This document shows, in pieces, positions 44,319 through 58,234 of a stretch of DNA of 64,000 nt (position 1 is its first letter; each line of letters starts with the position of its first letter). The stretch lies in the sequence record MZ502379.1; one strand, written 5' to 3'. This stretch comes from Escherichia phage vB_EcoM_Shinka. Position numbers and translations under genes: made by a program. Below the pieces are notes generated by a model. That model saw nothing but the letters and a program-made list of their open reading frames with translations. It was not told the DNA's origin and searched no databases.

Positions 44319-45236
44319 TCAAAATTCATTAATGCTATTAGTTAATTTAGAAAGACCCGCTTTTACAAAATATGAATAAATTTTGCCGCGCGGTGGTAAT
44401 TTATATGAATTATAGTAATTCACAATGTTTGAAGCAATATTATCAGGAATATAATCAAAATCAATTAGAACTAAATTTTCTTTATAACGATTATATTCAG
44501 ATTCTGTGAGAAGCACCTTAGCTTGCTCACGGTCATTAGCAATAGCTTCAACAATAGAGGTTTTCATTGAAGGAGTTCGTTCACCTTCAACTCTGGTAAA
44601 CCAAAAGTCAGATCGTACTTTAACTGAAGCAACGTTATCCTTTTTGTCGCCTTTAAGGATTTTAGTCATACAGTCAATTTCAGCAGAACCGCTTTTAATT
44701 TTAACCCATTTCTTGTGCATCGGTGACCATTGCTTAACATTTGGATATTTGTGAAGTTGAGTAAAGTCACCATCCGATGAAATGATTAAAATCTTGTGTC
44801 CTTCTAAAGAGAACTTTTTAACAAGAACAGCAATGTGGTCATCTGCTTCATACTTATCAATATCCATAACAATGTATGGCATATAAGCTTTTAATTCATC
44901 TATAACTTTATGACTGGATTCAAAATAACCTTCCCAGTCCCAAGTAGATTCTTCTCGTGCTTTTCCACGGTTTTTCTTATAATAATAAGCGAAATCACGA
45001 CGCCAGTATCCAGATTTCGCGTTATCAATACATAGTACAATTTTAGTGTATCCAAGCGTTTTTGCTTTTTTGACATTAAACTTAATTGAGTTCAATATCA
45101 AATGACGAACCATTGATAAATTAATTTTTTCTTTATCTGGGAAGTTTACCAGAGCAGTTGAAAGAGCAATTTGACTAAAGTCAATAAAGCAAATTCCTTC
45201 TTTGTAATCTTCATCCAGCATCATTTCTAAATCCAT
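44319..45236 (-). CDS. rnh: RNase H (5-prime to 3-prime exonuclease, FEN family)
   Basis: 305-aa ORF from ATG 45236 (MDLEMMLDEDYKEG...). Confidence 0.93.
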   Translation of the reverse strand: MDLEMMLDEDYKEGICFIDFSQIALSTALVNFPDKEKINLSMVRHLILNSIKFNVKKAKTLGYTKIVLCIDNAKSGYWRRDFAYYYKKNRGKAREESTWDWEGYFESSHKVIDELKAYMPYIVMDIDKYEADDHIAVLVKKFSLEGHKILIISSDGDFTQLHKYPNVKQWSPMHKKWVKIKSGSAEIDCMTKILKGDKKDNVASVKVRSDFWFTRVEGERTPSMKTSIVEAIANDREQAKVLLTESEYNRYKENLVLIDFDYIPDNIASNIVNYYNSYKLPPRGKIYSYFVKAGLSKLTNSINEF

Positions 45237-45298
45237 ATGAACCTCGTTCAATTAGTGAGATTTCTATTATATACTATCTAAATCTTAAAGTAAACAGG

Positions 45299-45306
45299 TA
45301 TAAATA
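45299..45306 (+). promoter_or_regulatory. late promoter (TATAAATA) for gene 34
   Basis: Exact TATAAATA 35 nt upstream of the ATG. Confidence 0.6.
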
Positions 45307-45340
45307 CTTATTATTGAAAACACAATAGGAGCCCGGGAGA

Positions 45341-48300
45341 ATGGCCGAGATTAAAAGAAAGTTCAGAGCAGAAGATGGTCTGGACGCAGGTGGCGATAAA
45401 ATAATCAATGTAGCTTTAGCTGATCGTACCGTAGGAACTGACGGTGTTAACGTTGATTACTTAATTCAAGAAAACACAGTTCAGCAATATGATCCAACTC
45501 GTGGATATTTAAAAGATTTTGTAATCATTTATAATAATCGTTTTTGGGCAGCAACGGATAATATTCCAAAACCTGCTGGAAATTTTAATAGAATTCGTTG
45601 GAAAGCATTACGTACTGATGCCGTATATACAACCGTATCATCTGGACCATATCAATTAAAATCCGGAGAAGCAATTTCAGTAGATACATCAGTTGGCAAT
45701 GACATTGAGTTTACTTTACCACCTTCTCCGCTTGATGGAGAAACCGTAATAATTCAAGATATCGGTGGAAAACCTGGCATAAATCAGGTTAAAATAAATT
45801 CTTCAAATCAGAGTATTGTCAATTTTAGAGGTGAACAGGTACGTTCAGTTTTAATGACTCATCCAAAGTCACAGATGGTATTCATTTTTAATAATCGTTT
45901 GTGGCAAATGTATATTGCTGATTATAGCAGAGAAGCTGCGATTGTTACTCCATCGACTGCATATCAAGCACAATCTAATGATTTTATCGTACGTAGATTT
46001 ACTTCTGCCGCACCGATTAATGTTAAACTTCCAAGATTTGCCAATCATGGAGATATCATTAATTTCGTTGATTTAGATAAATTAAATCCACTTTATCATA
46101 CAATTGTTACGACATATGATGAAACAACGTCAGTGCAAGAAGTTGGAACTCATTCCATTGAAGGCCGTACATCGATTGACGGTTTCTTGATGTTTGATGA
46201 TAATGAGAAATTGTGGAGATTGTTTGACGGGGATAGTAAAGCACGTTTACGCATTATAACAACTAATTCTAATATTCGTCCAAATGAAGAAGTTATGGTA
46301 TTTGGTGCGAATAACGGAACAGCTCAGACAATTGAACTTCAGCTTCCGACTGATATTTCTGTTGGTGATACTGTTAAAATTTCCATGAATTACATGAGAA
46401 AAGGACAAACAGTTAAAATCAAAGCTGCTGGTGAAGATAAAATTGCTTCTTCAGTTCAATTGCTGCAATTCCCAAAACGCTCAGAATATCCACCTGAAGC
46501 TGAATGGGTAACAGTTCAAGAATTAGTTTTTAACGGTGAAACTAATTATGTACCAGTTTTGCAACTTGCTTATATAGAAGATTCTGATGGAAAATACTGG
46601 GTTGTACAGCAAAACGTTCCAACAGTTGAAAGAGTCGATTCTTTAAATAATTCTACTAGAGCAAGATTAGGCGTAATTGCTTTAGCTACACAAGCTCAAG
46701 CAAATGCTGATTTAGAAAATTCTCCGCAAAAAGAATTGGCAATTACTCCAGAAACGTTAGCTAATCGTACTGCTACAGAAACTCGCAGAGGTATTGCAAG
46801 AATAGCAACTACTGCTCAAGTGAATCAGAACACCACATTCTCTTTTGCAGATGACCTTATCATCACTCCTAAAAAGCTGAATGAAAGAACTGCTACAGAA
46901 ACTCGCAGAGGTGTCGCTGAAATTGCTACGCAGCAGGAAACTAATACAGGTACTGATGATACTACAATCATCACTCCTAAAAAGCTTCAAGCTCGTCAAG
47001 GTTCTGAAACATTATCGGGTATTGTAACTTTTGTATCTACCGCAGGAGCTACTCCAGCTTCTAGTCGTGAATTAAATGGTACGAATGTTTATAATAAAAA
47101 CACTAATAATTTAGTTGTTTCACCTAAAGCTTTGGATCAGTATAAAGCTACTCCAACGCAACAAGGCGCAGTAATTTTAGCAGTTGAAAGTGAAGTAATT
47201 GCTGGACAAAGCCAAGAAGGATGGGCAAATGCGGTTGTAACGCCAGAAACGTTACATAAAAAGACATCAACTGATGGAAGAATTGGTTTAATTGAAATTG
47301 CTACGCAAAGTGAAGTTAATACAGGAACTGATTATACTCGCGCAGTCACTCCTAAAACTTTAAATGACCGTAGAGCAACTGAAAGTTTAAGTGGTATAGC
47401 TGAAATTGCTACGCAAGTTGAATTCGACGCAGGCGTCGACGATACTCGTATCTCTACACCATTAAAAATTAAAACCAGATTTAATAGTACTGATCGTACT
47501 TCTGTTGTTGCTCTATCTGGATTAGTTGAATCAGGAACTCTCTGGGACCATTATACCCTTAATATTCTTGAAGCAAATGAGACACAGCGTGGTACACTTC
47601 GTGTAGCTACACAAGTTGAAGCTGCTGCAGGAACATTAGATAATGTTTTAATAACTCCTAAAAAGCTTTTAGGTACTAAATCTACCGAATCGCAAGAAGG
47701 TGTTATTAAAGTTGCAACTCAGTCTGAAACTGTAGCTGGAACGTCAGCAAATACTGCTGTATCTCCAAAAAATTTAAAATGGATTGTGCAGAGTGAACCT
47801 ACTTGGGCAGCGACTACTGCGATAAGAGGTTTTGTTAAAACTTCGTCTGGTTCAATTACATTCGTTGGTAATGATACAGCTGGTTCAACACAGCCATTAG
47901 AATCATATGAGAAAAATGGTTATGCAGTATCACCATATGAATTAAATCGCGTATTAGCAAATTATTTGCCATTAAAAGCAAAAGCCGTAGATAGTAATTT
48001 ATTAGATGGTCTAGATTCGCTCCAGTTCATTCGTAGGGACATTGCACAAACAGTTAATGGTTCACTAACCTTAACCCAACAAACGAATCTGAGTGCCCCT
48101 CTTGTATCATCTAGTACTGCTACATTCGGTGGATCAGTTTCAGCAAATAGTACATTAACTATTTCTAATACTGGAACGGCAACTCGTCTGATTTTTGAGA
48201 AAGGACCTCAAACTGGAACAAACCCGGCTCAAACGATGACAGTCAGAGTGTGGGGAAATCAATTTAGTGGGGAATCAGACACAACACGTTCTACCGTATT

Positions 48301-49210
48301 TGAAGTTAGTGATGAAACGTCTAGTCATTTTTATTCTCAGCGTAATAAAGCTGGAAATATAACATTTAATATCAACGGTACAGTAACACCGATAAATGTT
48401 AATGCTTCAGGAACATTGAATGCGAATGGCGTTGCTACATTTGGTAATTCAGTCACTGCAATTGGTGAAATTATTTCTCGAAGCGCAAATGCTTTCCGTG
48501 CTATTAATGGAAATTATGGTTTCATTATTCGTAATGACGGGTCAGTAACGAATTTTATGCTTACTGCATCAGGCAATCAAACTGGTGGATTTAATGGATT
48601 ACGTCCATTGTCCATTAATAATCAATCTGGGCAGGTCACAATTGGTGAAAGCTTGATCATTGCTAAAGGTGCTACTATAAATTCAGGTGGTTTAACTGTT
48701 AACTCGAGAATTCGTTCTCAAGGTGTTAAAACATCTGATTTATATACCCGTGCGCCGACATCTGATACTGTAGGATTCTGGTCAATTGATATTAACGATT
48801 CAGCCACTTATAACCAGTTCCCGGGTTATTTTAAAATGGTTGAAAAAACTAATGAAGTGACTGGGCTTCCATACTTAGAACGTGGCGAAGAAGTTAAATC
48901 TCCTGGTACATTGACTCAGTTTGGTAACACACTTGATTCACTTTACCAAGATTGGATTACTTATCCAACAACTCCAGAAGCGCGTACCACTCGTTGGACG
49001 CGTACATGGCAGAAAACCAAAAACTCTTGGTCAAGTTTTGTTCAGGTATTTGACGGAGGTAACCCTCCTCAACCTTCAGATATAGGAGCAATCCCATCTG
49101 ATAATGGAATAATAGGTAATCTTACTATTCGCGATTTCTTGCGAATTGGTAATGTTCGCATTATTCCTGACCCAGTGAATAAAACTGTTAAATTTGAATG
49201 GATTGAATAA
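45341..49210 (+). CDS. 34: long tail fibre proximal subunit gp34
   Basis: 1289-aa ORF, T4 gp34 length; internal repeated modules. Confidence 0.96.
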   Translation: MAEIKRKFRAEDGLDAGGDKIINVALADRTVGTDGVNVDYLIQENTVQQYDPTRGYLKDFVIIYNNRFWAATDNIPKPAGNFNRIRWKALRTDAVYTTVSSGPYQLKSGEAISVDTSVGNDIEFTLPPSPLDGETVIIQDIGGKPGINQVKINSSNQSIVNFRGEQVRSVLMTHPKSQMVFIFNNRLWQMYIADYSREAAIVTPSTAYQAQSNDFIVRRFTSAAPINVKLPRFANHGDIINFVDLDKLNPLYHTIVTTYDETTSVQEVGTHSIEGRTSIDGFLMFDDNEKLWRLFDGDSKARLRIITTNSNIRPNEEVMVFGANNGTAQTIELQLPTDISVGDTVKISMNYMRKGQTVKIKAAGEDKIASSVQLLQFPKRSEYPPEAEWVTVQELVFNGETNYVPVLQLAYIEDSDGKYWVVQQNVPTVERVDSLNNSTRARLGVIALATQAQANADLENSPQKELAITPETLANRTATETRRGIARIATTAQVNQNTTFSFADDLIITPKKLNERTATETRRGVAEIATQQETNTGTDDTTIITPKKLQARQGSETLSGIVTFVSTAGATPASSRELNGTNVYNKNTNNLVVSPKALDQYKATPTQQGAVILAVESEVIAGQSQEGWANAVVTPETLHKKTSTDGRIGLIEIATQSEVNTGTDYTRAVTPKTLNDRRATESLSGIAEIATQVEFDAGVDDTRISTPLKIKTRFNSTDRTSVVALSGLVESGTLWDHYTLNILEANETQRGTLRVATQVEAAAGTLDNVLITPKKLLGTKSTESQEGVIKVATQSETVAGTSANTAVSPKNLKWIVQSEPTWAATTAIRGFVKTSSGSITFVGNDTAGSTQPLESYEKNGYAVSPYELNRVLANYLPLKAKAVDSNLLDGLDSLQFIRRDIAQTVNGSLTLTQQTNLSAPLVSSSTATFGGSVSANSTLTISNTGTATRLIFEKGPQTGTNPAQTMTVRVWGNQFSGESDTTRSTVFEVSDETSSHFYSQRNKAGNITFNINGTVTPINVNASGTLNANGVATFGNSVTAIGEIISRSANAFRAINGNYGFIIRNDGSVTNFMLTASGNQTGGFNGLRPLSINNQSGQVTIGESLIIAKGATINSGGLTVNSRIRSQGVKTSDLYTRAPTSDTVGFWSIDINDSATYNQFPGYFKMVEKTNEVTGLPYLERGEEVKSPGTLTQFGNTLDSLYQDWITYPTTPEARTTRWTRTWQKTKNSWSSFVQVFDGGNPPQPSDIGAIPSDNGIIGNLTIRDFLRIGNVRIIPDPVNKTVKFEWIE

Positions 49211-49218
49211 GAGGTATT

Positions 49219-50334
49219 ATGGAAAAATTTATGGCAGAGTTTGGACAAGGATATGTTCAAACGCCATTTTTATCGGAAAGCAATTCAGTAAGATATAAAA
49301 TAAGTATAGCGGGTTCTTGCCCGCTTTCTACAGCAGGACCATATGTTAAATTTCAGGATAATCCCGTTGGAAATCAAACATTTAGCGCAGGTCTTCATTT
49401 AAAAGTTTTTGACCCTTCTACAGGAGCATTAGTTGACAGTAAATCATATGCTTTTTCTGCTTCAAACAATACAACATCTGCCGCTTTTGTCAGTTTCATG
49501 AATTCTTTGTCAAACAATAGACTTGTTGCTATATTAACTAGCGGAAAGGTTAATTTTCCTCCTGAAGTGGTATCTTGGTTAAGGGGAGCAGGAACTTCAG
49601 TTTTTCCATCAGATTCAGTATTGTCAAGATTTGACGTGTCATATGCTGCTTTTTATACTTCTTCTAAAAGAGCTATTGCATTAGAGCATGTTAAACTAAG
49701 TAATAGAAAAAGCACAGATGATTATCAAACTATTTTAGATGTTGTATTTGATAGTTTAGAAGACGTCGGAGCTACAGGATTTCCTAAAAGAACATACGAA
49801 AGCGTTGAGCAATTTATGTCTGCGGTTGGAGGAACTAATAATGAAATTGCGCGATTGCCAACTTCAGCTGCTATAAGTAAACTTTCTGACTACAATTTAA
49901 TTCCTGGTGATGTTCTTTATCTTAAAGCACAACTATATGCTGATGCTGATTTACTTGATCTTGGAACTACAAATATATCTATTCGTTTTTATGATGCATC
50001 AAATGGATATATTTCCTCGACCCAAGCTGAGTTTACTGGACAGGCTGGGTCATGGGAATTAAAGGAAGATTATGTAGTTGTTCCTGAAAATGCAGTAGGA
50101 TTTACGATATATGCACAAAGAACTGCCCAAGCAGGTCAAGGCGGCATGAGAAATTTAAGCTTTTCTGAAGTATCAAGAAATGGCGGCATTTCAAAACCTG
50201 CCGAATTTGGCGTCAACGGTATTCGCGTTAATTATGTCTGCGAATCGGCTTCACCTCCAGATATAATGGTACTTCCTACACAAGCCTCTTCTAAAACTGG
50301 CAAAGTGTTTGGGCAAGAATTTAGAGAAGTTTAA
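49219..50334 (+). CDS. 35: long tail fibre hinge protein gp35
   Basis: 371-aa ORF following gene 34. Confidence 0.93.
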   Translation: MEKFMAEFGQGYVQTPFLSESNSVRYKISIAGSCPLSTAGPYVKFQDNPVGNQTFSAGLHLKVFDPSTGALVDSKSYAFSASNNTTSAAFVSFMNSLSNNRLVAILTSGKVNFPPEVVSWLRGAGTSVFPSDSVLSRFDVSYAAFYTSSKRAIALEHVKLSNRKSTDDYQTILDVVFDSLEDVGATGFPKRTYESVEQFMSAVGGTNNEIARLPTSAAISKLSDYNLIPGDVLYLKAQLYADADLLDLGTTNISIRFYDASNGYISSTQAEFTGQAGSWELKEDYVVVPENAVGFTIYAQRTAQAGQGGMRNLSFSEVSRNGGISKPAEFGVNGIRVNYVCESASPPDIMVLPTQASSKTGKVFGQEFREV

Positions 50335-50365
50335 ACTGAGGGAGCCTTCGGGTTCCCTTTTTCTT

Positions 50366-50373
50366 TATAAATA
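50366..50373 (+). promoter_or_regulatory. late promoter (TATAAATA) for gene 36
   Basis: Exact TATAAATA 24 nt upstream of the ATG. Confidence 0.55.
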
Positions 50374-50396
50374 ATATTAAAATAAAGGGGCATATA

Positions 50397-51047
50397 ATGG
50401 CTGATTTAAAAGTAGGTTCAACTGTAGGTGGATCTGTCATTTGGCATCAAGGAAATTTTCCATTGAATTCAGCCGGTGACGATGTACTCTACAAATCATT
50501 TAAAATATATTCAGAATATAATAAACCGCAGGCAGCTGATAACGATTTCGTTTCTAAAGCTAATGGTGGTACTTACACCGGTCCAATTACTATTAATTAC
50601 GGGGTAAATAGTTATCTTCAATTAAGTAATAATGAAACCCCCATTCGAATTCGTTCTGGTGGCGGCACTGGTAATACTCTTGTAGTTGGCGGCTCTTCCG
50701 GTGGTATTAGTTTTAGACCTGCAGGTAGTGAAATCACTACTGGACAAATTACTATTACACCAGAAGGTTTGACAACATTTACCAGGGCTGTAACGGCTCC
50801 ATCGGTAACTGTTACATCTACTCCTTCCGCAGCATCTGATGTTACTCGCAAAGATTATGTTGATGGAGCAATAAATACTGTTACAGCAAATGCAAACTCT
50901 AGGGTATTACGCTCTGGAGACACTATGACAGGAAATTTAACTGCGCCAAACCTTTTTTCACAGAATCCTGCATCTCAACCTTCACACGTTCCACGATTTG
51001 ACCAAATCGTAATTAAGGATTCTGTTCAAGATTTCGGCTATTATTAA
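50397..51047 (+). CDS. 36: long tail fibre distal connector gp36
   Basis: 216-aa ORF with a late promoter upstream. Confidence 0.9.
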
Positions 51048-51055
51048 GAGGACTT

Positions 51056-54004
51056 ATGGCTACTTTAAAACAAATACAATTTAAAAGAAGCAAAACTGCA
51101 GGTCAACGTCCTGCTGCTTCAGTATTAGCCGAAGGTGAATTGGCTATAAACTTAAAAGATAAAACAATTTTCACAAAAGATGACTCAGGTAGTGTTATAG
51201 AATTAGGTTTAAAATATGGAGGAACTATAAATGGGTCTTTAGAGGTTACAGAAAATATAACTGGAACTTTAATTGGAAATTCTAGCACAGCTACTAAATT
51301 GCAAACACCTAGGAAAATTAATGGTATATCTTTTGATGGGTCAAAGGACATTACCTTAACTCCATCTGACATAAATGTCAATAGCACAACATTTATAAAA
51401 AATAATGGCGAATTACCTACTGATGCTAATTTAGATACGTATGGGCCCATTGAAGAATATCTTGGTGTTTGGTCGAAATCTACTTCAACAAATGCGCAAC
51501 CAGCAAATAAATTCCCAGAAGAAAATGCCGTAGGTGTACTAGAAGTATTTGTGGCCGGCCAATTTGCTGGCACTCAGCGTTATACTGTAAGATCTGGTAA
51601 CGTCTATATTCGTTCCTTATCTGCTAAATGGAATGGCGTCGATGGTCCATGGGGTGTGTGGCGTAATGTTCAAGCGTCAACTCGTCCACTTTCACAAACG
51701 ATTGACCTTGATAGCTTGGGAGAATTAGAACATTGTGGCTTATGGAGAAACAGTTCAAGCGCAATCGCATCATTTGATCGCCATTATCCAGAAGAAGGAT
51801 CAGCCGCACAAGGATTTTTAGAAATATTTGAAGGTGGTTTATACACAAGAACGCAGCGTTATACTACCCGCATGGGTATGGTTTATACTCGTTGTCTCGC
51901 TGCTGCATGGGATGCTAGTGCACCTAAGTGGGAGGAATGGAAGCAGGTTGGTCATGGCACACCAGCGACTTTCTATGACGGAGATCTGAATGATTTTAAA
52001 ACTCCTGGATTATATAATATTTTAGGCACTGATGCCGTTATTAACTGTCCTACCGGTGAAGGTTTGCCGACTGTTATTGTTGGTTTGCTGGAAGTTAAAC
52101 AGCGTGCTTCTGGCGGTGCTATTTTCCAAAAATTTACTACTGCCGGAACGGGTGCAACTACTCGCGATCGTATTTTTGAGCGTGCATATACTGGTGGTGT
52201 GTGGGGTGCATGGAACGAAGTATATACATCTTACTCTCTGCCAATTACTTTAGGTATGGGTGGTATTAAAGCTCAATTAGCGGAGTTAGATTGGCAAACA
52301 TTTGATTTTGTTCCTGGTAGTATGTTTAGCGTTCCTTTGAACAAAATAAAGAATATGCCAGCAAATATGGATTGGGGCACGATTGACGGAAACTTGGTTA
52401 TGTTTTCTGTCGGTCCTAGCGAACACACTAGCACAGGGCGTACTGTTCAGGTTTGGCGTGGTACTGTATCCCAGACAAACTATCGTTATTTTGTCGTTCG
52501 TGTGTTCGGTAATTCTGGAAATAGAACTTGCACAGTTCGCCGTGTTGTTCTTGAAGACGGATCACATACTTGGACTGCTCAACAAAACTTTAGGGGATTG
52601 CTGAATATCACTGCTGCTGTTAATCTTGGTGCTAATCAGAAAATTTCACTTGCTCCAGGAGCATATATTCAAGCCCCTGCTAGCGGTTCTGGTTCTAATA
52701 CTTACGCAAATCAGAATATTACCATTGCGCCATTATATCAGGCTATTGACGATTCAAATAAAAGCCAGTTTGCGCCAATTGTTAAACAGAAAAACACTGC
52801 AACAAATATTACTATGGCTTCTGGTATGGATATTGCTAGTTCAGAATATCGTATCGTTGCTCAGGGTGATTTATCCGCTACTGGAACTACAGCCACTGAA
52901 TTAGCTACATGGCGTTTCTTGCCATCGGGCCGATTCATGTCACAAAGTCGAGTTTATGCTGGCGCAGCATTCTTGAACACTGATGGTAACATCAGTGGTT
53001 CAATCTGGAAGAAATATAACAATGCAACCAATTTAGATGCTGCCTTGAATACTCGCCTAGGTAAAGGCGGTGATACGATGACAGGTCGGTTAACAATCAA
53101 TGCACCTAATGATTCTATTGTATTATCAACAACTGCTAGTAATTCTTTGCATATTCGCGGTGACATAGACGGGACTGGTAACTGGTATATTGGCAAGGGT
53201 GGTGCTGATAATTCGCTAGCATTTTATAGCTATGCTTCTCAGGCGGCAGTATATATCACAAACAATGGTGAGATTGCGTTAAACCCGCAAAATACCGCAA
53301 TGGTTAACGTTAACCGTGACCGTGTACACATTAACGGTTCTGGATGGATTGCTAGACAACCGGGTGATTGGGACAACCAATGGCGAGTAGAAGCTCCATT
53401 ATTCGTTGATCATGGTTATGTTGGTCAAGATAGTTATTATCCTATTCTTAAAGCAAGAAGCGTTATAACCAATCAAGGATATAGCACCGCTGTTGACTTT
53501 GGTATGCGTCGTATTCCATCACAGTGGGGGCAAGCAATCATTCGTGTCGGATCCACGGAGGCTTCTCCTGATGCTGGACACCCACAAGCTGTGTTTGAAT
53601 TCCATCATGATGGATTCTTTTATACACCAGGAAATGGTAGCTTTAGCGATGTGTATATTCGTTCCGATGGTCGTCTTAAGATTAATAAAAAAGAGCTAGA
53701 AAACGGAGCACTTGAAAAAGTATGCCGACTGAAAGTTTATACATACGATAAGGTTAAGTCTATTAAAGATCGTAGCGTTATTAAACGTGAAGTTGGTATT
53801 ATTGCTCAGGACCTTGAAAAGGAATTACCGGAAGCTGTGTCTAAAGTTGAAGTTGATGGTTCTGATGTTCTGACAATTTCTAACTCCGCTGTAAATGCTC
53901 TTTTAATTAAGGCTATCCAAGAAATGAGCGAAGAAATTAAAGAATTAAAAACGCCTTTCTTCACTAAAATTGCTCGCAAAATTAGTAATTATTTTAAATT
54001 CTAA
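51056..54004 (+). CDS. 37: long tail fibre distal subunit gp37 with C-terminal intramolecular chaperone (peptidase S74-like) domain
   Basis: 982-aa ORF; conserved gp37 N-terminus; C-terminus [20 protein letters not shown]...GIIAQDLEK resembles an autoproteolytic chaperone domain. Confidence 0.92.
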
Positions 54005-54036
54005 CAACAAGGGGCTTTGCCCCTTTGGAGATAATT

Positions 54037-54819
54037 ATGGCAGTAGTTGGTGTTCCCGGTTGGATTGGAAGTTCATCCGTAAATGAAACGGGTCAGCGCT
54101 GGATGAGTCAAGCGGCTGGTCAATTAAGATTGGGTGTTCCTTGCTGGATGAGTCAATTTGCAGGTCGCTCACGAGAAATAATTCACACGCTTGGAGCAGA
54201 CCATAACTTCAATGGTCAATGGTTCCGAGATAGATGTTTTGAGGCAGGTAGTGCACCTATAGTGTTTAATATCAATGGAGATTTAGTATCATATTCTAAA
54301 GATGTTCCTTTATTCTTCATGTATGGAGATACACCCAATGAATATGTTCAGTTGAATATACACGGCGTAACGATGTATGGTCGTGGCGGTAATGGCGGTA
54401 GCAATAGTCCTGGCTCAGCTGGGGGTCATTGTATTCAAAATGATATTGGTGGGAGACTAAGAATTAATAATGGCGGAGCTATTGCAGGCGGCGGTGGCGG
54501 CGGTGGCGGCGGATATTATTCTCCTTTTTCACAAATGAGATTGACCTTTGGCGGCGGCGGTGGGCGTCCGTTTGGTGCACCTGGCGGATCTATTGATATG
54601 CAATCAGGAGCGACTGGCGGTACTATTTCTGCACCTGGCTCAGGATCCGTGAATGGTATCTATAATGGTGGAAACGGTGGTGAAGTAGGTTCCGCGGGAG
54701 GTAGATGCAATATTCGCGGTCAAGGATCTGAATATAATGGCGGCGATGCTGGTTATGCCGTCATAGGGTCCGCTCCAACGTGGATAAATGTTGGAGCAAT
54801 ATATGGTCCAAGAGTATAA
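54037..54819 (+). CDS. 38: gp38 receptor-binding adhesin (T2-type, glycine-rich motifs)
   Basis: 260-aa ORF from ATG 54037 (GGAG Shine-Dalgarno); several poly-Gly motifs ([25 protein letters not shown]) flanking variable segments. Confidence 0.85.
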
Positions 54820-54849
54820 TTTGAATAAATATCCTTAAAAGGAGGGTCT

Positions 54850-55506
54850 ATGGCAGCACCTAAAATATCATTTTCGCCCTCTGATATTCTGTTTGGTGTT
54901 CTAGATCGCTTGTTCAAAGATAACGCTACCGGGAAAGTTCTTGCTTCCCGGGTAGCTGTCGTAATTCTTTTATTTATGATGGCGATTGTTTGGTATAGGG
55001 GAGATAGTTTCTTTGAGTACTATAAGCAATCAAAGTATGAAACATACAGTGAAATTATTGAAAAGGAAAGAAATGCACGCTTTGAATCTGTCGCCCTGGA
55101 ACAACTCCAGATAGTTCACATATCATCTGAGGCAGACTTTAGTGCGGTGTATTCTTTCCGCCCTAAAAACTTAAACTATTTTGTTGATATTATAGCATAC
55201 GAAGGAAAATTACCTTCAACAATAAGTGAAAAATCACTTGGAGGATATCCTGTTGATAAAACTATGGATGAATATACAGTTCATTTAAATGGACGTCATT
55301 ATTATTCCAATTCAAAATTTGCTTTTTTACCAACTAAAAAGCCTACTCCCGAAATAAACTACATGTACAGTTGTCCATATTTTAATTTGGATAATATCTA
55401 TGCTGGAACGATAACCATGTACTGGTATAGAAATGATCATATAAGTAATGACCGCCTTGAATCAATATGTGCTCAGGCGGCCAGAATATTAGGAAGGGCT
55501 AAATAA
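54850..55506 (+). CDS. t: holin T
   Basis: 218-aa ORF with single N-terminal transmembrane segment (VAVVILLFMMAIVWY) and large periplasmic domain. Confidence 0.95.
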   Translation: MAAPKISFSPSDILFGVLDRLFKDNATGKVLASRVAVVILLFMMAIVWYRGDSFFEYYKQSKYETYSEIIEKERNARFESVALEQLQIVHISSEADFSAVYSFRPKNLNYFVDIIAYEGKLPSTISEKSLGGYPVDKTMDEYTVHLNGRHYYSNSKFAFLPTKKPTPEINYMYSCPYFNLDNIYAGTITMYWYRNDHISNDRLESICAQAARILGRAK

Positions 55507-55779
55507 TTATTTGTTCGTATACATTTCTAGATATCGATATACACCCTCAAAACCCTCGTTGAATTCGTCGATGAGGGTTTTCTTATCTTCCTGAGTTAAT
55601 TCAGAAACAATTTTACGAAATGAATTCTGATTTAACTTTCTACCTTCATGCGTTACTCCAATCTCATTAAGAAATGCAATAAAATTAGCACGATTCTCAA
55701 CAATATCTTCTCTGGAAAATTTAATCAAAATAGATGCAACAGTAATAATTTCACGAACTGTATCAATGTTTTTATTCAT
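55507..55779 (-). CDS. asiA: anti-sigma70 factor AsiA
   Basis: 90-aa ORF MNKNIDTVREIITVASILIKFSREDIVENRANFIAFLNEIG... Confidence 0.95.
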   Translation of the reverse strand: MNKNIDTVREIITVASILIKFSREDIVENRANFIAFLNEIGVTHEGRKLNQNSFRKIVSELTQEDKKTLIDEFNEGFEGVYRYLEMYTNK

Positions 55780-55791
55780 TAACTATACCAC

Positions 55792-55944
55792 TCAATTAGT
55801 TGACTTTGTTATAATATCATCAGACGCTTGATTTGTAAACTGGTCTGTGTTATTTTCTTCAAAAATTTTTTCTACGAATTCCTTGAACGACTCGCGTTCC
55901 TGAGCTACATTATGCTCGATTACCTTTTCAAGATTATGACTCAT
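55792..55944 (-). CDS. small acidic hypothetical protein
   Basis: 50-aa ORF below the track cutoff (MSHNLEKVIEHNVAQERESF...); ATG overlaps the arn stop (ATGA). Confidence 0.45.
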   Translation of the reverse strand: MSHNLEKVIEHNVAQERESFKEFVEKIFEENNTDQFTNQASDDIITKSTN

Positions 55945-56219
55945 TCGAAATAATCTTCAATTTCGTAATCATGGACATAAATCATTATAGTTTCTAATAC
56001 ATCATCAATACTTTTTCCTGGAGCTGGAATTACGTAAAAATATCCTGCTTTTGAGAGGTCTTTATAAGTTCCAATCAAGAAATCATTATTCTCAAGATGT
56101 AGTTCTTCAACTAATTCATTAACAATTGAGTGGTATAAATTTGGTAGAAACTTATATAGCTTTTCTAGAATATCAATTTTAATTGTGTATTGAACCACGG
56201 ACTGAGAATCAATAATCAT
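55941..56219 (-). CDS. arn: Arn anti-restriction (McrBC inhibitor) protein
   Basis: 92-aa acidic ORF at the T4 arn position. Confidence 0.8.
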   Translation of the reverse strand: MIIDSQSVVQYTIKIDILEKLYKFLPNLYHSIVNELVEELHLENNDFLIGTYKDLSKAGYFYVIPAPGKSIDDVLETIMIYVHDYEIEDYFE

Positions 56220-56296
56220 AGACCTTCCCCTTATGTTTCTGTTTGCGATTAGATTCTTTAAACGCTTTCTTCTTATCCTTATGGACAGAAGCTTTA

Positions 56297-56521
56297 TTAA
56301 AATTGTGTTTTGCGACTAAATTGTTCATAGTGCTGAATTACCTCTCTCAAACACTTGCATGTGAATGAAAACTTTTTAGCTACACCACATTCAAATATAT
56401 GTTCTCTTAAATCGCGTGTATCGGTATATCCCATCTCAACAATAAAATGCCGTATTAGATTTTTATCTTTATCATTGAGAGAATTAAAATAATCAGATTT
56501 TGAATTAATTTCCCTGGCCAA
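56297..56521 (-). CDS. hypothetical protein (arn.x region)
   Basis: 74-aa ORF. Confidence 0.6.
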   Translation of the reverse strand: MAREINSKSDYFNSLNDKDKNLIRHFIVEMGYTDTRDLREHIFECGVAKKFSFTCKCLREVIQHYEQFSRKTQF

Positions 56522-56801
56522 ATTGAATCACCTTCAGTTGACGTTTTAGTTCTTTTATCATTTCTTCGTTCATCGCAATATAAAGATCGCGTAAAGCAGG
56601 TTTTAACATTCCATTTACTGGAGAACTAAATGGACATACATAATCTTTTCCTACGAGCTTTTTGGTGAATTCCATATCACAGAACTGAAATGCCGGTTCA
56701 TTGGCATAAATTCCCCAATTAGTTGACATCATTTTATTGGCATATTCCAACGCCTGGATTTGATTCTTAATTCCATCAATTTGAAACTTTTTAATATTCA
56801 T
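56505..56801 (-). CDS. hypothetical protein (arn.x region)
   Basis: 98-aa ORF. Confidence 0.6.
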   Translation of the reverse strand: MNIKKFQIDGIKNQIQALEYANKMMSTNWGIYANEPAFQFCDMEFTKKLVGKDYVCPFSSPVNGMLKPALRDLYIAMNEEMIKELKRQLKVIQFGQGN

Positions 56802-57262
56802 TAGTAAAGGTCCTCAGAGTAAAGTTCTTTTTCACTACCACCGCGTTCAATACGTACTTGTCCGGCGTAAGTTGCAATAATCATTGCTTCTTCACGTGTC
56901 CAGTAATTGCTATACTGATCAATAAACCCTTGGTCATCATCACAAACTTGCTGAGTAACTAATTGGGGTTTAACTACATCTAAAACTTCTGCCATATCTT
57001 TAGAATAATGACGAGCACCTGGAATAATAAGAGTTCGTCCATCTTTTAATTTAAAGCGATTTGCTGCGCAAACAATTCGTCGTTGATACTTTTGATTTTC
57101 ATCCCAGTACGCAGTCTGCCAACAGATTTCAGGAACTTCATCTAAAACATTTTGTTCTGTATATTCACCACCGTAAGAAGCTAATTTAGCAGCCAGACTT
57201 TCCGGAGTCTCACGCGACAAAGCTTTATCTAACAGAGCTAAACGTTCTTTAAAAGTTTTCAT
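56801..57262 (-). CDS. hypothetical protein (arn.x region)
   Basis: 153-aa ORF. Confidence 0.65.
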
Positions 57263-57588
57263 TTAAACCATCCTTTAATACGTTGCCACAAAGTTTTCTG
57301 TTGAGCTTTGTTAACACCAATTGAGCGAATAACTGGTTGAGATTCCTGGAATTCTTTATAATCAGCAAGGTAAATTTCGTAAGCTGAATCCGTAAAGGAA
57401 CTTATAGCTGCCATGAAATTATTGCGAATACCTACTGGAGCATCTTTACTTTCACGAATAATCATGTATTTGCCAGTCTTAATCTTTACGATAGTTCCAA
57501 GATAAGCTCCGTGGTACCAGATATCCCACCCCTCTTGAGTGGGTTCTGCGCAACGACGAAGTTCATTGATAATTTCTAACTTGTTCAT
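57259..57588 (-). CDS. hypothetical protein (arn.x region)
   Basis: 109-aa ORF. Confidence 0.65.
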
Positions 57589-57598
57589 TATTTATTCC

Positions 57599-58234
57599 TC
57601 ACAGTTCAGATGCTACGGTGATTACAGCTTCAATGTTTTCTGCCGAGCGTTTAATGTCAAGATACACATTACCGTTTTTAGCGATTTTACATGACATTCC
57701 GATATCAGTAAATTTCTGAATATGATGTTCCATCATTTTGTATCCAAAAATTCGCATATTTCCATTGTTGTTAATTTCAAAATTACGAATTCCGTGAGTG
57801 CGTTTTTCTAAAATAGCGAGATAATTACTACGATAAGTTTCAACCTTTTTAAGAACAAATCCATTTTCATCTAAAAGTTTTAACATGAGGTCTTTATCTT
57901 CTTCCATATCAGAAGTAATCTCACGAGCTTTACGAGTTGCTCGTTTTTTCAGCAGTTCCGGAGCATTTTCCTGTGCGTATAAAGTTGCTGCATTTGAAAT
58001 AATATCCTGAGCTTCACCAGTAATGATTAATCCATCACCAGATTTCTCCACCAGGCCTTTTTTAATCAATACCCCAATATTACTATTAACTACTGCGTTA
58101 CCTAAATCTGGATGCACCTCACGAACTTCTGCAGCTGTAATGAAATCTTTCTTAGCAATGGTAATTAAAATCGCAGCAGTTTTTTCATTCAGAACATCGT
58201 TAGAAGCTTTGATGATGTAAGTTACTTTAGACAT
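57599..58234 (-). CDS. motA: middle transcription activator MotA
   Basis: 211-aa ORF MSKVTYIIKASNDVLNEKTAAILITIAKKDFITAAEV...; early-type promoter upstream. Confidence 0.95.
   Translation of the reverse strand: MSKVTYIIKASNDVLNEKTAAILITIAKKDFITAAEVREVHPDLGNAVVNSNIGVLIKKGLVEKSGDGLIITGEAQDIISNAATLYAQENAPELLKKRATRKAREITSDMEEDKDLMLKLLDENGFVLKKVETYRSNYLAILEKRTHGIRNFEINNNGNMRIFGYKMMEHHIQKFTDIGMSCKIAKNGNVYLDIKRSAENIEAVITVASEL

Follow-up and report, generated by a model that had tools for sequence, protein, structure and literature searches.

Gene 38 of Escherichia phage vB_EcoM_Shinka has the same name and the same genomic position as gene 38 of phage T4, the product of which is a tail-fibre assembly chaperone. 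The locus raises the question of whether the Shinka protein is such a chaperone or a separate adhesin at the tip of gp37, and, if it is an adhesin, which receptor it binds.

Long tail fibre module

The window, a stretch of 64,000 nt of the vB_EcoM_Shinka genome (AC No. MZ502379), carries the long-tail-fibre module of a Tequatrovirus, and its fibre tip is T6-like. The gene order 34-35-36-37-38-t, read from the ORF listing and Pfam matches, is canonical (Table 1) and is the same in the closest systems, which are T6, WilhelmHis/Bas35, CM8, RB14, and KK4. In the literature on Shinka, the genome MZ502379 is used as a reference only, with nothing on the origin of the phage or its receptor. The tip is an ordinary, well-characterised T6-like receptor-binding tip and is already known as such; only the private gp38 substitutions N80, D237, and I250 are new here. 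As a whole, the locus is very probably explained as a T6-like fibre tip in which a self-trimming gp37 is capped by a Tsx-binding gp38 adhesin.

Table 1. Positions of the fibre-tip features in the analysed window of vB_EcoM_Shinka
Feature	Residues (aa)	Position (nt)	Strand	Basis or remark
Gene 37, long tail fibre distal subunit	982	51056..54004	+	ORF; PHROG 1699, E 5e-206
SDVYIR, predicted last strand of mature gp37, gp38 docking tip	gp37 864-869	53645..53662	+	S16 alignment
C-terminal intramolecular chaperone / Peptidase_S74 domain	gp37 870-982 (113)	53663..54001	+	Pfam PF13884 and 6f45_A
Stem-loop AGGGGC-UUU-GCCCCU (54010-54024), then Shine-Dalgarno GGAG (54027-54030)		54010..54030	+	Sequence
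Gene 38, tail-fibre tip adhesin, T6 type	260 + stop	54037..54819	+	Pfam, PDB, and PHROG matches
N-terminal attachment domain	gp38 1-42	54037..54162	+	Pfam Gp38_N
Specificity region	gp38 115-240	54379..54756	+	Conservation pattern in alignment, Gly runs
Glycine motifs (GRM), approximate	GRM1 115-120; GRM2 ~146-157; GRM3 172-184; GRM4 211-222; GRM5 235-239
Hypervariable segments (HVS), approximate	HVS1 121-128; HVS2 158-171; HVS3 185-210; HVS4 223-234
Holin t	 	54850..55506	+	Pfam Phage_holin_T, E 3e-117; context only, marks gene order

The predicted products of genes 37 and 38 are exact matches to the deposited proteins QXV73019.1 and QXV73074.1 of vB_EcoM_Shinka, respectively, and NCBIfam has no model for either of them. 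Shinka gp37 is 78% identical to gp37 of T6, with both ends near-identical, and differs from it in a central block at about aa 505-685, which is swapped in Shinka. The ends are nearly identical also in the close relatives of T6, and in this group the chaperone domain has 5-7 differences in 113 aa. The N-terminal 64 residues are 75% identical to T4 gp37, but beyond these only parts of the shaft are aligned in BLASTP. T4 gp37 has its own receptor-binding tip and is without a Peptidase_S74 domain, whereas Shinka gp37, when compared with it in BLASTP, is without the T4-type C-terminal needle/head region.

Gene 38 follows gene 37 directly, starting 32 nt past its stop codon, and the Shine-Dalgarno sequence GGAG lies 6 nt 5' of its ATG. 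The length of 260 aa given for gp38 in the initial annotation is borne out by the ATG at 54037 and the stop codon at 54817-54819. The ORF listing also offers a TTG at 54025, which would give 264 aa; the Pfam Gp38_N profile starts at residue 1 of the ATG version. The hairpin between the two genes folds with -12.1 kcal/mol (z = -1.1), which is not significant and no stabler than shuffled sequence, and a scan for terminators and promoters gave no relevant hit in the gap from gene 37 to gene 38, nor after gene 38. In the record of phage fPS-65, the equivalent spot is annotated as 'terminator'.

C-terminal domain of gp37

The C-terminus of gp37 had been proposed to be a chaperone domain of the autoproteolytic type known from phage fibres, and this was confirmed by Pfam and by alignment to a crystal structure, with the cleavage itself being predicted. 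Peptidase_S74 (PF13884) matches aa 870-928 with 45.4 bits (E 1e-11; cut-off 22 bits) over profile positions 1-57 of 58, and the match starts exactly at S870. Among structures, 6f45_A was recognized as the most similar (E 2.9e-5), followed by 8jov_1 (E 0.014) and the MYRF structure 7dc3 (E 1.3). The three protein strings quoted for this C-terminus in the initial annotation are all present in the translation (3/3). Its start of the domain at 53600, which corresponds to gp37 residue 849, was placed 21 residues too far upstream; the true start is S870, at nt 53663.

The predicted autocleavage separates R869 from S870 (nt 53662/53663) in the motif DVYIR^SDGRLK, where Ser870 and Lys875, the Lys five residues downstream of the Ser, form a putative dyad. 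The mechanism of such Ser-Lys dyads is known from work on the chaperone domains of endosialidases. Endosialidases, other phage fibres, and the MYRF ICA have in common with Shinka gp37 the C-terminal position of the domain, the Ser...Lys motif at its start, and PF13884. Endosialidase-type domains finish a tailspike, whereas the predicted release of the Shinka domain would free the site at which another protein, the adhesin, docks. The region SDVYIR^SDGRLK aligns to 'RDLNVS^SDRRIK' of S16 gp37, and the chaperone domain of S16 is reported to have 113 residues (PMC7917993), the same length as in Shinka. The cleavage site DVYIR^SDGRLKI has been described for the near-identical fPS phages (PMC7917993); these have G at the position of Shinka G872, while T6 has S there. 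Proteolytic cleavage is also reported for gp37 of T2 and T6 (PMC3157838). By analogy with S16, the fPS phages, and T2/T6 gp37, the chaperone domain of Shinka would be released autoproteolytically after trimerisation.

Tail fibre adhesin gp38

Two Pfam profiles together cover gp38 at full length: Gp38_N (PF21721) at aa 1-42 with 70.4 bits (E 1.2e-19) and GP38 (PF05268) at aa 47-260 with 238.8 bits (E 7.7e-71), both with a cut-off of 25 bits. The protein also matches PHROG 2056 (E 3.5e-111). The best match in PDB is the crystal structure of PP01 gp38 (9V85, E 3e-77), and S16 gp38 (6F45, chain 6f45_D) matches at aa 5-257 (E 2e-50). Since the AlphaFold2 model computed from the single sequence without an alignment was unusable (pLDDT 28.8), the fold of gp38, a predicted beta-helix plus polyglycine-II sandwich, is taken from homology to these two crystal structures. 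The adhesin family of T2, T6, and K3 named in the initial annotation, as opposed to the T4 chaperone, is upheld by the full-length Pfam matches and the homology to S16 and PP01. Its designation of the tip as T2-type was right as to the adhesin family and wrong as to the subtype, as gp38 is 94% identical to that of T6 and 52% identical to that of T2, which makes it T6-type.

Residues W9, W22, and W37 of the attachment domain are invariant in the alignment of gp38 with T2, FL34, and the T6 group, and they align to the tryptophans of S16, where the docking role of the Trp prongs and the polyglycine sandwich have been described (PMC6851490). The Gly content is 24% over the whole protein and 37% over aa 115-240. 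Thirteen runs of at least two Gly residues were found in gp38, including nine Gly at aa 151-159 (nt 54487-54513) and five at aa 172-176; in S16, the third PGII helix is 151-GGGGGGGG-158 (PMC6851490). No GRM column varies among T2, FL34, and the T6 group, whereas the segments between the motifs do. Poly-glycine motifs bracketing variable segments, as had been noted from the sequence at the outset, are thus present as GRMs alternating with four HVS.

Assembly of the tip and alternative readings

In the preferred reading, the 113-residue intramolecular chaperone domain at the C-terminus of gp37 would assist the protein in forming trimers, and the Ser870/Lys875 dyad, judging from homology, would then cut the R869-S870 bond and let the chaperone leave. 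This cut would expose the DVYIR tip, to which a single gp38 may dock via its N-terminal helical bundle with W9, W22, and W37, as suggested by the S16 structure. The GRMs of the C-terminal half of gp38 would form a lattice of polyglycine-II helices from which the hypervariable loops project to make contact with the receptor. A virion-borne gp38 monomer that caps the gp37 trimer and mediates adsorption is known for S16, T2, and T6 (PMC3157838, PMC6851490).

The gp37(3)-gp38 complex of S16 (6F45) has, as in Shinka, three Trp prongs, polyglycine at aa 151-158/159, and a 113-residue chaperone domain with the motif S-D-x-R-x-K; its hypervariable loops differ from those of Shinka, and S16 binds OmpC of Salmonella. 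Upstream of its last five residues, S16 gp37 is unrelated to Shinka gp37 (PMC7917993). The beta-helix domain and glycine motifs of PP01 gp38 (9V85), which folds as a beta-helix plus polyglycine-II sandwich, are nearly identical to those of Shinka, but the HVS loops differ throughout, and PP01 binds OmpC of E. coli O157 as against the Tsx predicted for Shinka.

An arrangement as in T4, with gp38 as an assembly chaperone absent from the virion and the C-terminus of gp37 binding the receptor, has next to no probability. Gene name and position are all that it has in its favour, whereas gp38 matches adhesin families and structures at full length and gp37 is without the T4 needle/head region. In BLASTP, the best alignment of gp38 with T4 gp38 (183 aa) covered 15 residues with E 1.1, which means no similarity, and the two proteins are unrelated; at the level of sequence, the T4-type reading of gp38 was rejected. 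A full-length alignment with the T4 chaperone had been named at the outset as the observation that would speak against an adhesin; with E 1.1 none was found, and this test therefore fails to refute the adhesin. It is also highly improbable that gp37 ends in a degenerate module, chaperone-like but left uncleaved on the fibre. The cleavage in Shinka is drawn from homology and literature, and the match to 6f45_A is modest, but both the Ser and the +5 Lys are conserved, S870 is precisely where the Pfam domain starts, and cleavage of gp37 is on record for T2 and T6 (PMC3157838). Moreover, according to the S16 structure, a chaperone still attached would block the surface on which gp38 docks (PMC7917993).

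The value of the self-trimming gp37 with its gp38 cap is mainly in correct annotation, that is, a detachable gp38 adhesin versus the T4 arrangement, with a receptor predictable from sequence as Tsx. Such a prediction helps in the choice of hosts, in anticipating resistance by loss of tsx, and in host-range engineering by HVS swaps, all of which are established practice for T-even phages.

Receptor prediction

The alignment of gp38 to known adhesins, proposed in the initial annotation as a way to the receptor, points to Tsx. At full length, gp38 is 97% identical to both WilhelmHis/Bas35 and CM8, and the best match in the phage BLAST collection was KK4 with 98.5%. Its aa 84-236 are 100% identical to WilhelmHis/Bas35, with HVS1-4 all identical, and T6 and CM8 have nearly the same four segments. 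Identity in the GRM/HVS region is 99.2% with WilhelmHis, 95.2% with T6, and 46-48% with T2 (FadL-type) and FL34 (OmpF-type); CM8 differs from Shinka in this region only by N234D and D237A. The dependence of WilhelmHis (Bas35) on Tsx was shown and complemented (PMC8594841), the receptor of CM8 was identified as Tsx/HepI by RB-TnSeq (bioRxiv 10.64898/2026.04.02.716166), and T6-like adhesins recognise Tsx (PMC3157838). The receptor is predictable from gp38 phylogeny (PMC12032242), and a swap of gp38 from HVS2 onward switches it (bioRxiv 10.64898/2026.04.02.716166). As the four HVS are identical to WilhelmHis and nearly so to T6 and CM8, all of them Tsx-dependent, Shinka most likely uses the nucleoside channel Tsx as its receptor on E. 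coli K-12.

A tip of the same architecture with another primary receptor (OmpA, LPS core, or another porin), reached through private substitutions or T6-like polyspecificity, is unlikely. Phage PST has a T6-like adhesin and requires OmpA together with Tsx (PMC3157838), but the PST-specific residues R166, I167, and I207 (Shinka numbering) are absent from gp38. Extended specificity of the PST type is judged unlikely for Shinka because these HVS residues are missing. Phage fPS-65, the adhesin of which is almost identical to that of Shinka, uses LPS inner-core heptoses on Yersinia, and Yersinia mutants resistant to it map to LPS heptose genes (PMC7917993). A single HVS3 residue, Q206L, switches RB68 from OmpF to OmpW (bioRxiv 10.64898/2026.04.02.716166), and D237, which is unique to Shinka, lies in GRM5 right after HVS4. 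Against this stand the full identity of HVS1-4 with WilhelmHis, for which the dependence on Tsx was complemented (PMC8594841), and the fact that none of the three private changes falls in a hypervariable segment.

Private substitutions in gp38

'Shinka' is Japanese for 'evolution'. The residues N80, D237, and I250 of its gp38 occur in none of the 19 close relatives that were compared (0/19). N80 is in the beta-helix domain, D237 is inside GRM5 next to HVS4, and I250 is in a conserved C-terminal motif and is a two-base change. The three substitutions could be adaptive host-range mutations; that they alter the host range, or widen it, in comparison with the usual Tsx binders of the T6 type is quite improbable.

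Long-tail-fibre locus

The distal fibre subunit gp37 and the tip adhesin gp38 are coded on the plus strand as part of a canonical T-even long-tail-fibre module, and minus-strand genes, including asiA, arn, and motA, lie downstream of it. Positions 45000–58000 were covered in about 170 Tequatrovirus genomes with 96–97% identity (megablast), among them P922, AV121, PYps15T, Paracelsus, WilhelmHis (Bas35), CM8, and PST. The phage Shinka genome is in GenBank under AC No. MZ502379 (PMC9686686), and exact matches of gp37 (QXV73019.1) and gp38 (QXV73074.1) are already public for it; no paper describing this phage was found in the literature. The closest other gp38 proteins, those of KK4 and GADU22, are 98.5% identical (phage BLAST collection without the Shinka genome). 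NCBIfam has no model for gp37 or gp38.

Features of the long-tail-fibre locus
Feature	Position	Remark
gp34	45341–49210	
gp35	49219–50334	
gp35 aa 58–112	49390–49554	ILEI match
gp36	50397–51047	
gp37	51056–54004	982 aa
gp37 central block	52568–53110	aa ~505–685
gp37 chaperone domain	53663–54001	
Stem-loop	54010–54030	AGGGGC UUU GCCCCU
GGAG	54027–54030	upstream of gp38 ATG
gp38	54037–54819	260 aa
gp38 N80	54274–54276	codon AAT; relatives T or V
gp38 D237	54745–54747	GAT for GCT, one base change; in glycine-rich motif 5 (GGDAG); relatives A
gp38 I250	54784–54786	ATA for CAA, two adjacent base changes; relatives Q
holin t	54850–55506	

Tip adhesin gp38

Matches of gp38 to PF05268 (E 7.7e-71, aa 47–260), PF21721 (E 1.2e-19, aa 1–42), and PHROG 2056 were found. 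Its best structural relatives are the crystal structures 9V85 (E 3e-77), which is the receptor-binding domain of PP01 gp38 (PMC12892980), and S16 gp38 (6F45 chain D; E 2e-50 over aa 5–257). A role like that of T4 gp38, a tail-fibre assembly chaperone, was ruled out: a full-length alignment to this protein was sought and is absent (BLASTP E 1.1), and therefore the adhesin arrangement proposed in the initial annotation holds. The poly-glycine motifs noticed there are also present, as 13 runs of at least two Gly, including G9 at 151–159 and G5 at 172–176. Glycine makes up 24% of the protein and 37% of aa 115–240, where glycine-rich motifs and hypervariable segments alternate. Local G+C content of 0.47 against a background of about 0.35, together with a raised GC skew, is due to the GGN codons of these glycines. 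Polyglycine helix 3 of S16 (151-GGGGGGGG-158; PMC6851490) coincides with the G9 run. Three tryptophans of S16 gp38 plug into the gp37 tip (PMC6851490); they correspond to W9, W22, and W37, which are invariant in the adhesin alignment. An AlphaFold model from the single sequence was unusable.

The ATG start of gp38 is preceded by GGAG, and the residue it codes for aligns with the first position of Pfam Gp38_N, so the TTG at 54025 given by the ORF tool was rejected. A GC-rich stem-loop lies immediately 5′ of this Shine-Dalgarno sequence, with folding energy not significantly better than that of shuffled sequences (z = −1.1). A terminator is annotated at the equivalent site in the fPS-65 record; the scan recognized none around gene 38.

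In CM8 gp38 (L009:9039–9818), the third docking tryptophan is replaced by Leu (W37L), and CM8 is nonetheless viable and used experimentally. FL34 gp38 (PP400789.1, L006:1501–2313) is longer, and its last approximately 40 annotated residues have no similarity to other adhesins; this looks like a frameshift near the start of that record.

Receptor

Alignment with adhesins of known specificity, including T2 and T6 as suggested initially, points to Tsx, the outer-membrane nucleoside channel of E. coli.

Identity of gp38 to adhesins of known specificity
Phage	Overall	aa 115–240
T6	94%	95.2%
WilhelmHis/Bas35	97%	99.2%
CM8	97%	
PST	96%	
FL34 (OmpF type)	68%	47.7%
T2 (FadL)	52%	46.2%

Residues 84–236, covering all hypervariable segments, are identical to those of WilhelmHis, whose Tsx dependence was confirmed by genetic complementation (PMC8594841). 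T6-like adhesins recognise Tsx (Trojet et al., PMC3157838), and RB-TnSeq gave Tsx/HepI for CM8, in which exchange of gp38 from hypervariable segment 2 onward switched the receptor (bioRxiv 10.64898/2026.04.02.716166). Receptors are predictable from gp38 phylogeny (Lutz et al., PMC12032242). The PST residues tied to Yersinia and OmpA use (167R, 168I, and 208I in T6 numbering) are missing, with Q166, M167, and G207 present instead. Because of the identity to WilhelmHis in the hypervariable segments, the receptor data for T6 and CM8, and the absence of the PST residues, Tsx probably serves as primary receptor in E. coli K-12. Against this stands fPS-65: its adhesin is almost the same, yet in Yersinia, a host without Tsx, the mutants selected by this phage are affected in LPS heptose (PMC7917993, PMC3157838). 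Single residues are also able to switch gp38 specificity (bioRxiv 10.64898/2026.04.02.716166), and N80, D237, and I250, found in none of 19 close relatives examined, are a further caveat on Tsx. S16 gp38 also has I at position 250.

Chaperone domain and shaft of gp37

All gp37 peptides quoted in the initial annotation were found in the translation, and its C-terminal chaperone domain is borne out by Pfam and by S16 homology; the start given there, 53600, is residue 849, but the domain described begins at S870 (nt 53663). Residues 870–928 match Pfam Peptidase_S74 ("chaperone of endosialidase"; 45.4 bits, cut-off 22), and the last 134 residues match the distal subunit of the S16 long tail fibre (PDB 6F45, E 2.9e-5). 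The pair Ser870/Lys875 is presumably the counterpart of the Ser-Lys dyad in endosialidase chaperone domains. S16 gp37 is autocleaved between two serines, releasing an intramolecular chaperone of 113 residues, and cleavage at DVYIR^SDGRLKI was explicitly predicted for fPS phages (PMC7917993). The latter sequence is also in gp37, where S16 RDLNVS SDRRIK aligns with the predicted cleavage segment, and S870 to the C-terminus is exactly 113 residues. Just 5–7 of these 113 positions differ from T6, WilhelmHis, and CM8.

By homology, the chaperone domain would assist gp37 trimerisation before self-cleavage after R869. One gp38 would then dock on the trimer tip via its Trp prongs, and a polyglycine-II sandwich would display the hypervariable loops for binding to extracellular loops of Tsx. 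Domain architecture, motif conservation, and allele identity are established at the sequence level. There is no novelty of substance, since the exact proteins, Pfam models, and two crystal structures are deposited, the cleavage motif is in print, and gp38 alleles have already been used in publications to predict receptors; only the three private substitutions are new.

Alignment to T4 gp37 is confined to the first 64 residues plus some stretches of the shaft. The central block is unrelated to its T6 counterpart, whereas the flanks are nearly identical. It is common to WilhelmHis, AV121, CM8, and other phages of the same 90% cluster, and is the usual mosaic exchange of tail-fibre shafts.

Weaker PDB matches of the last 134 residues were 8jov, which is another phage tail fibre, and 7dc3 (E 1.3), in which human myelin regulatory factor (MYRF) is represented by its auto-processing domain. 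MYRF is known to be related to the chaperone domains of phage tailspikes, and the 7dc3 match agrees with this. The hinge protein gp35 matches Pfam ILEI (PF15711, "interleukin-like EMT inducer"; E 3.4e-7, above cut-off), which corresponds to the known GG domain common to phage gp35 and animal FAM3/POMGnT1 proteins.
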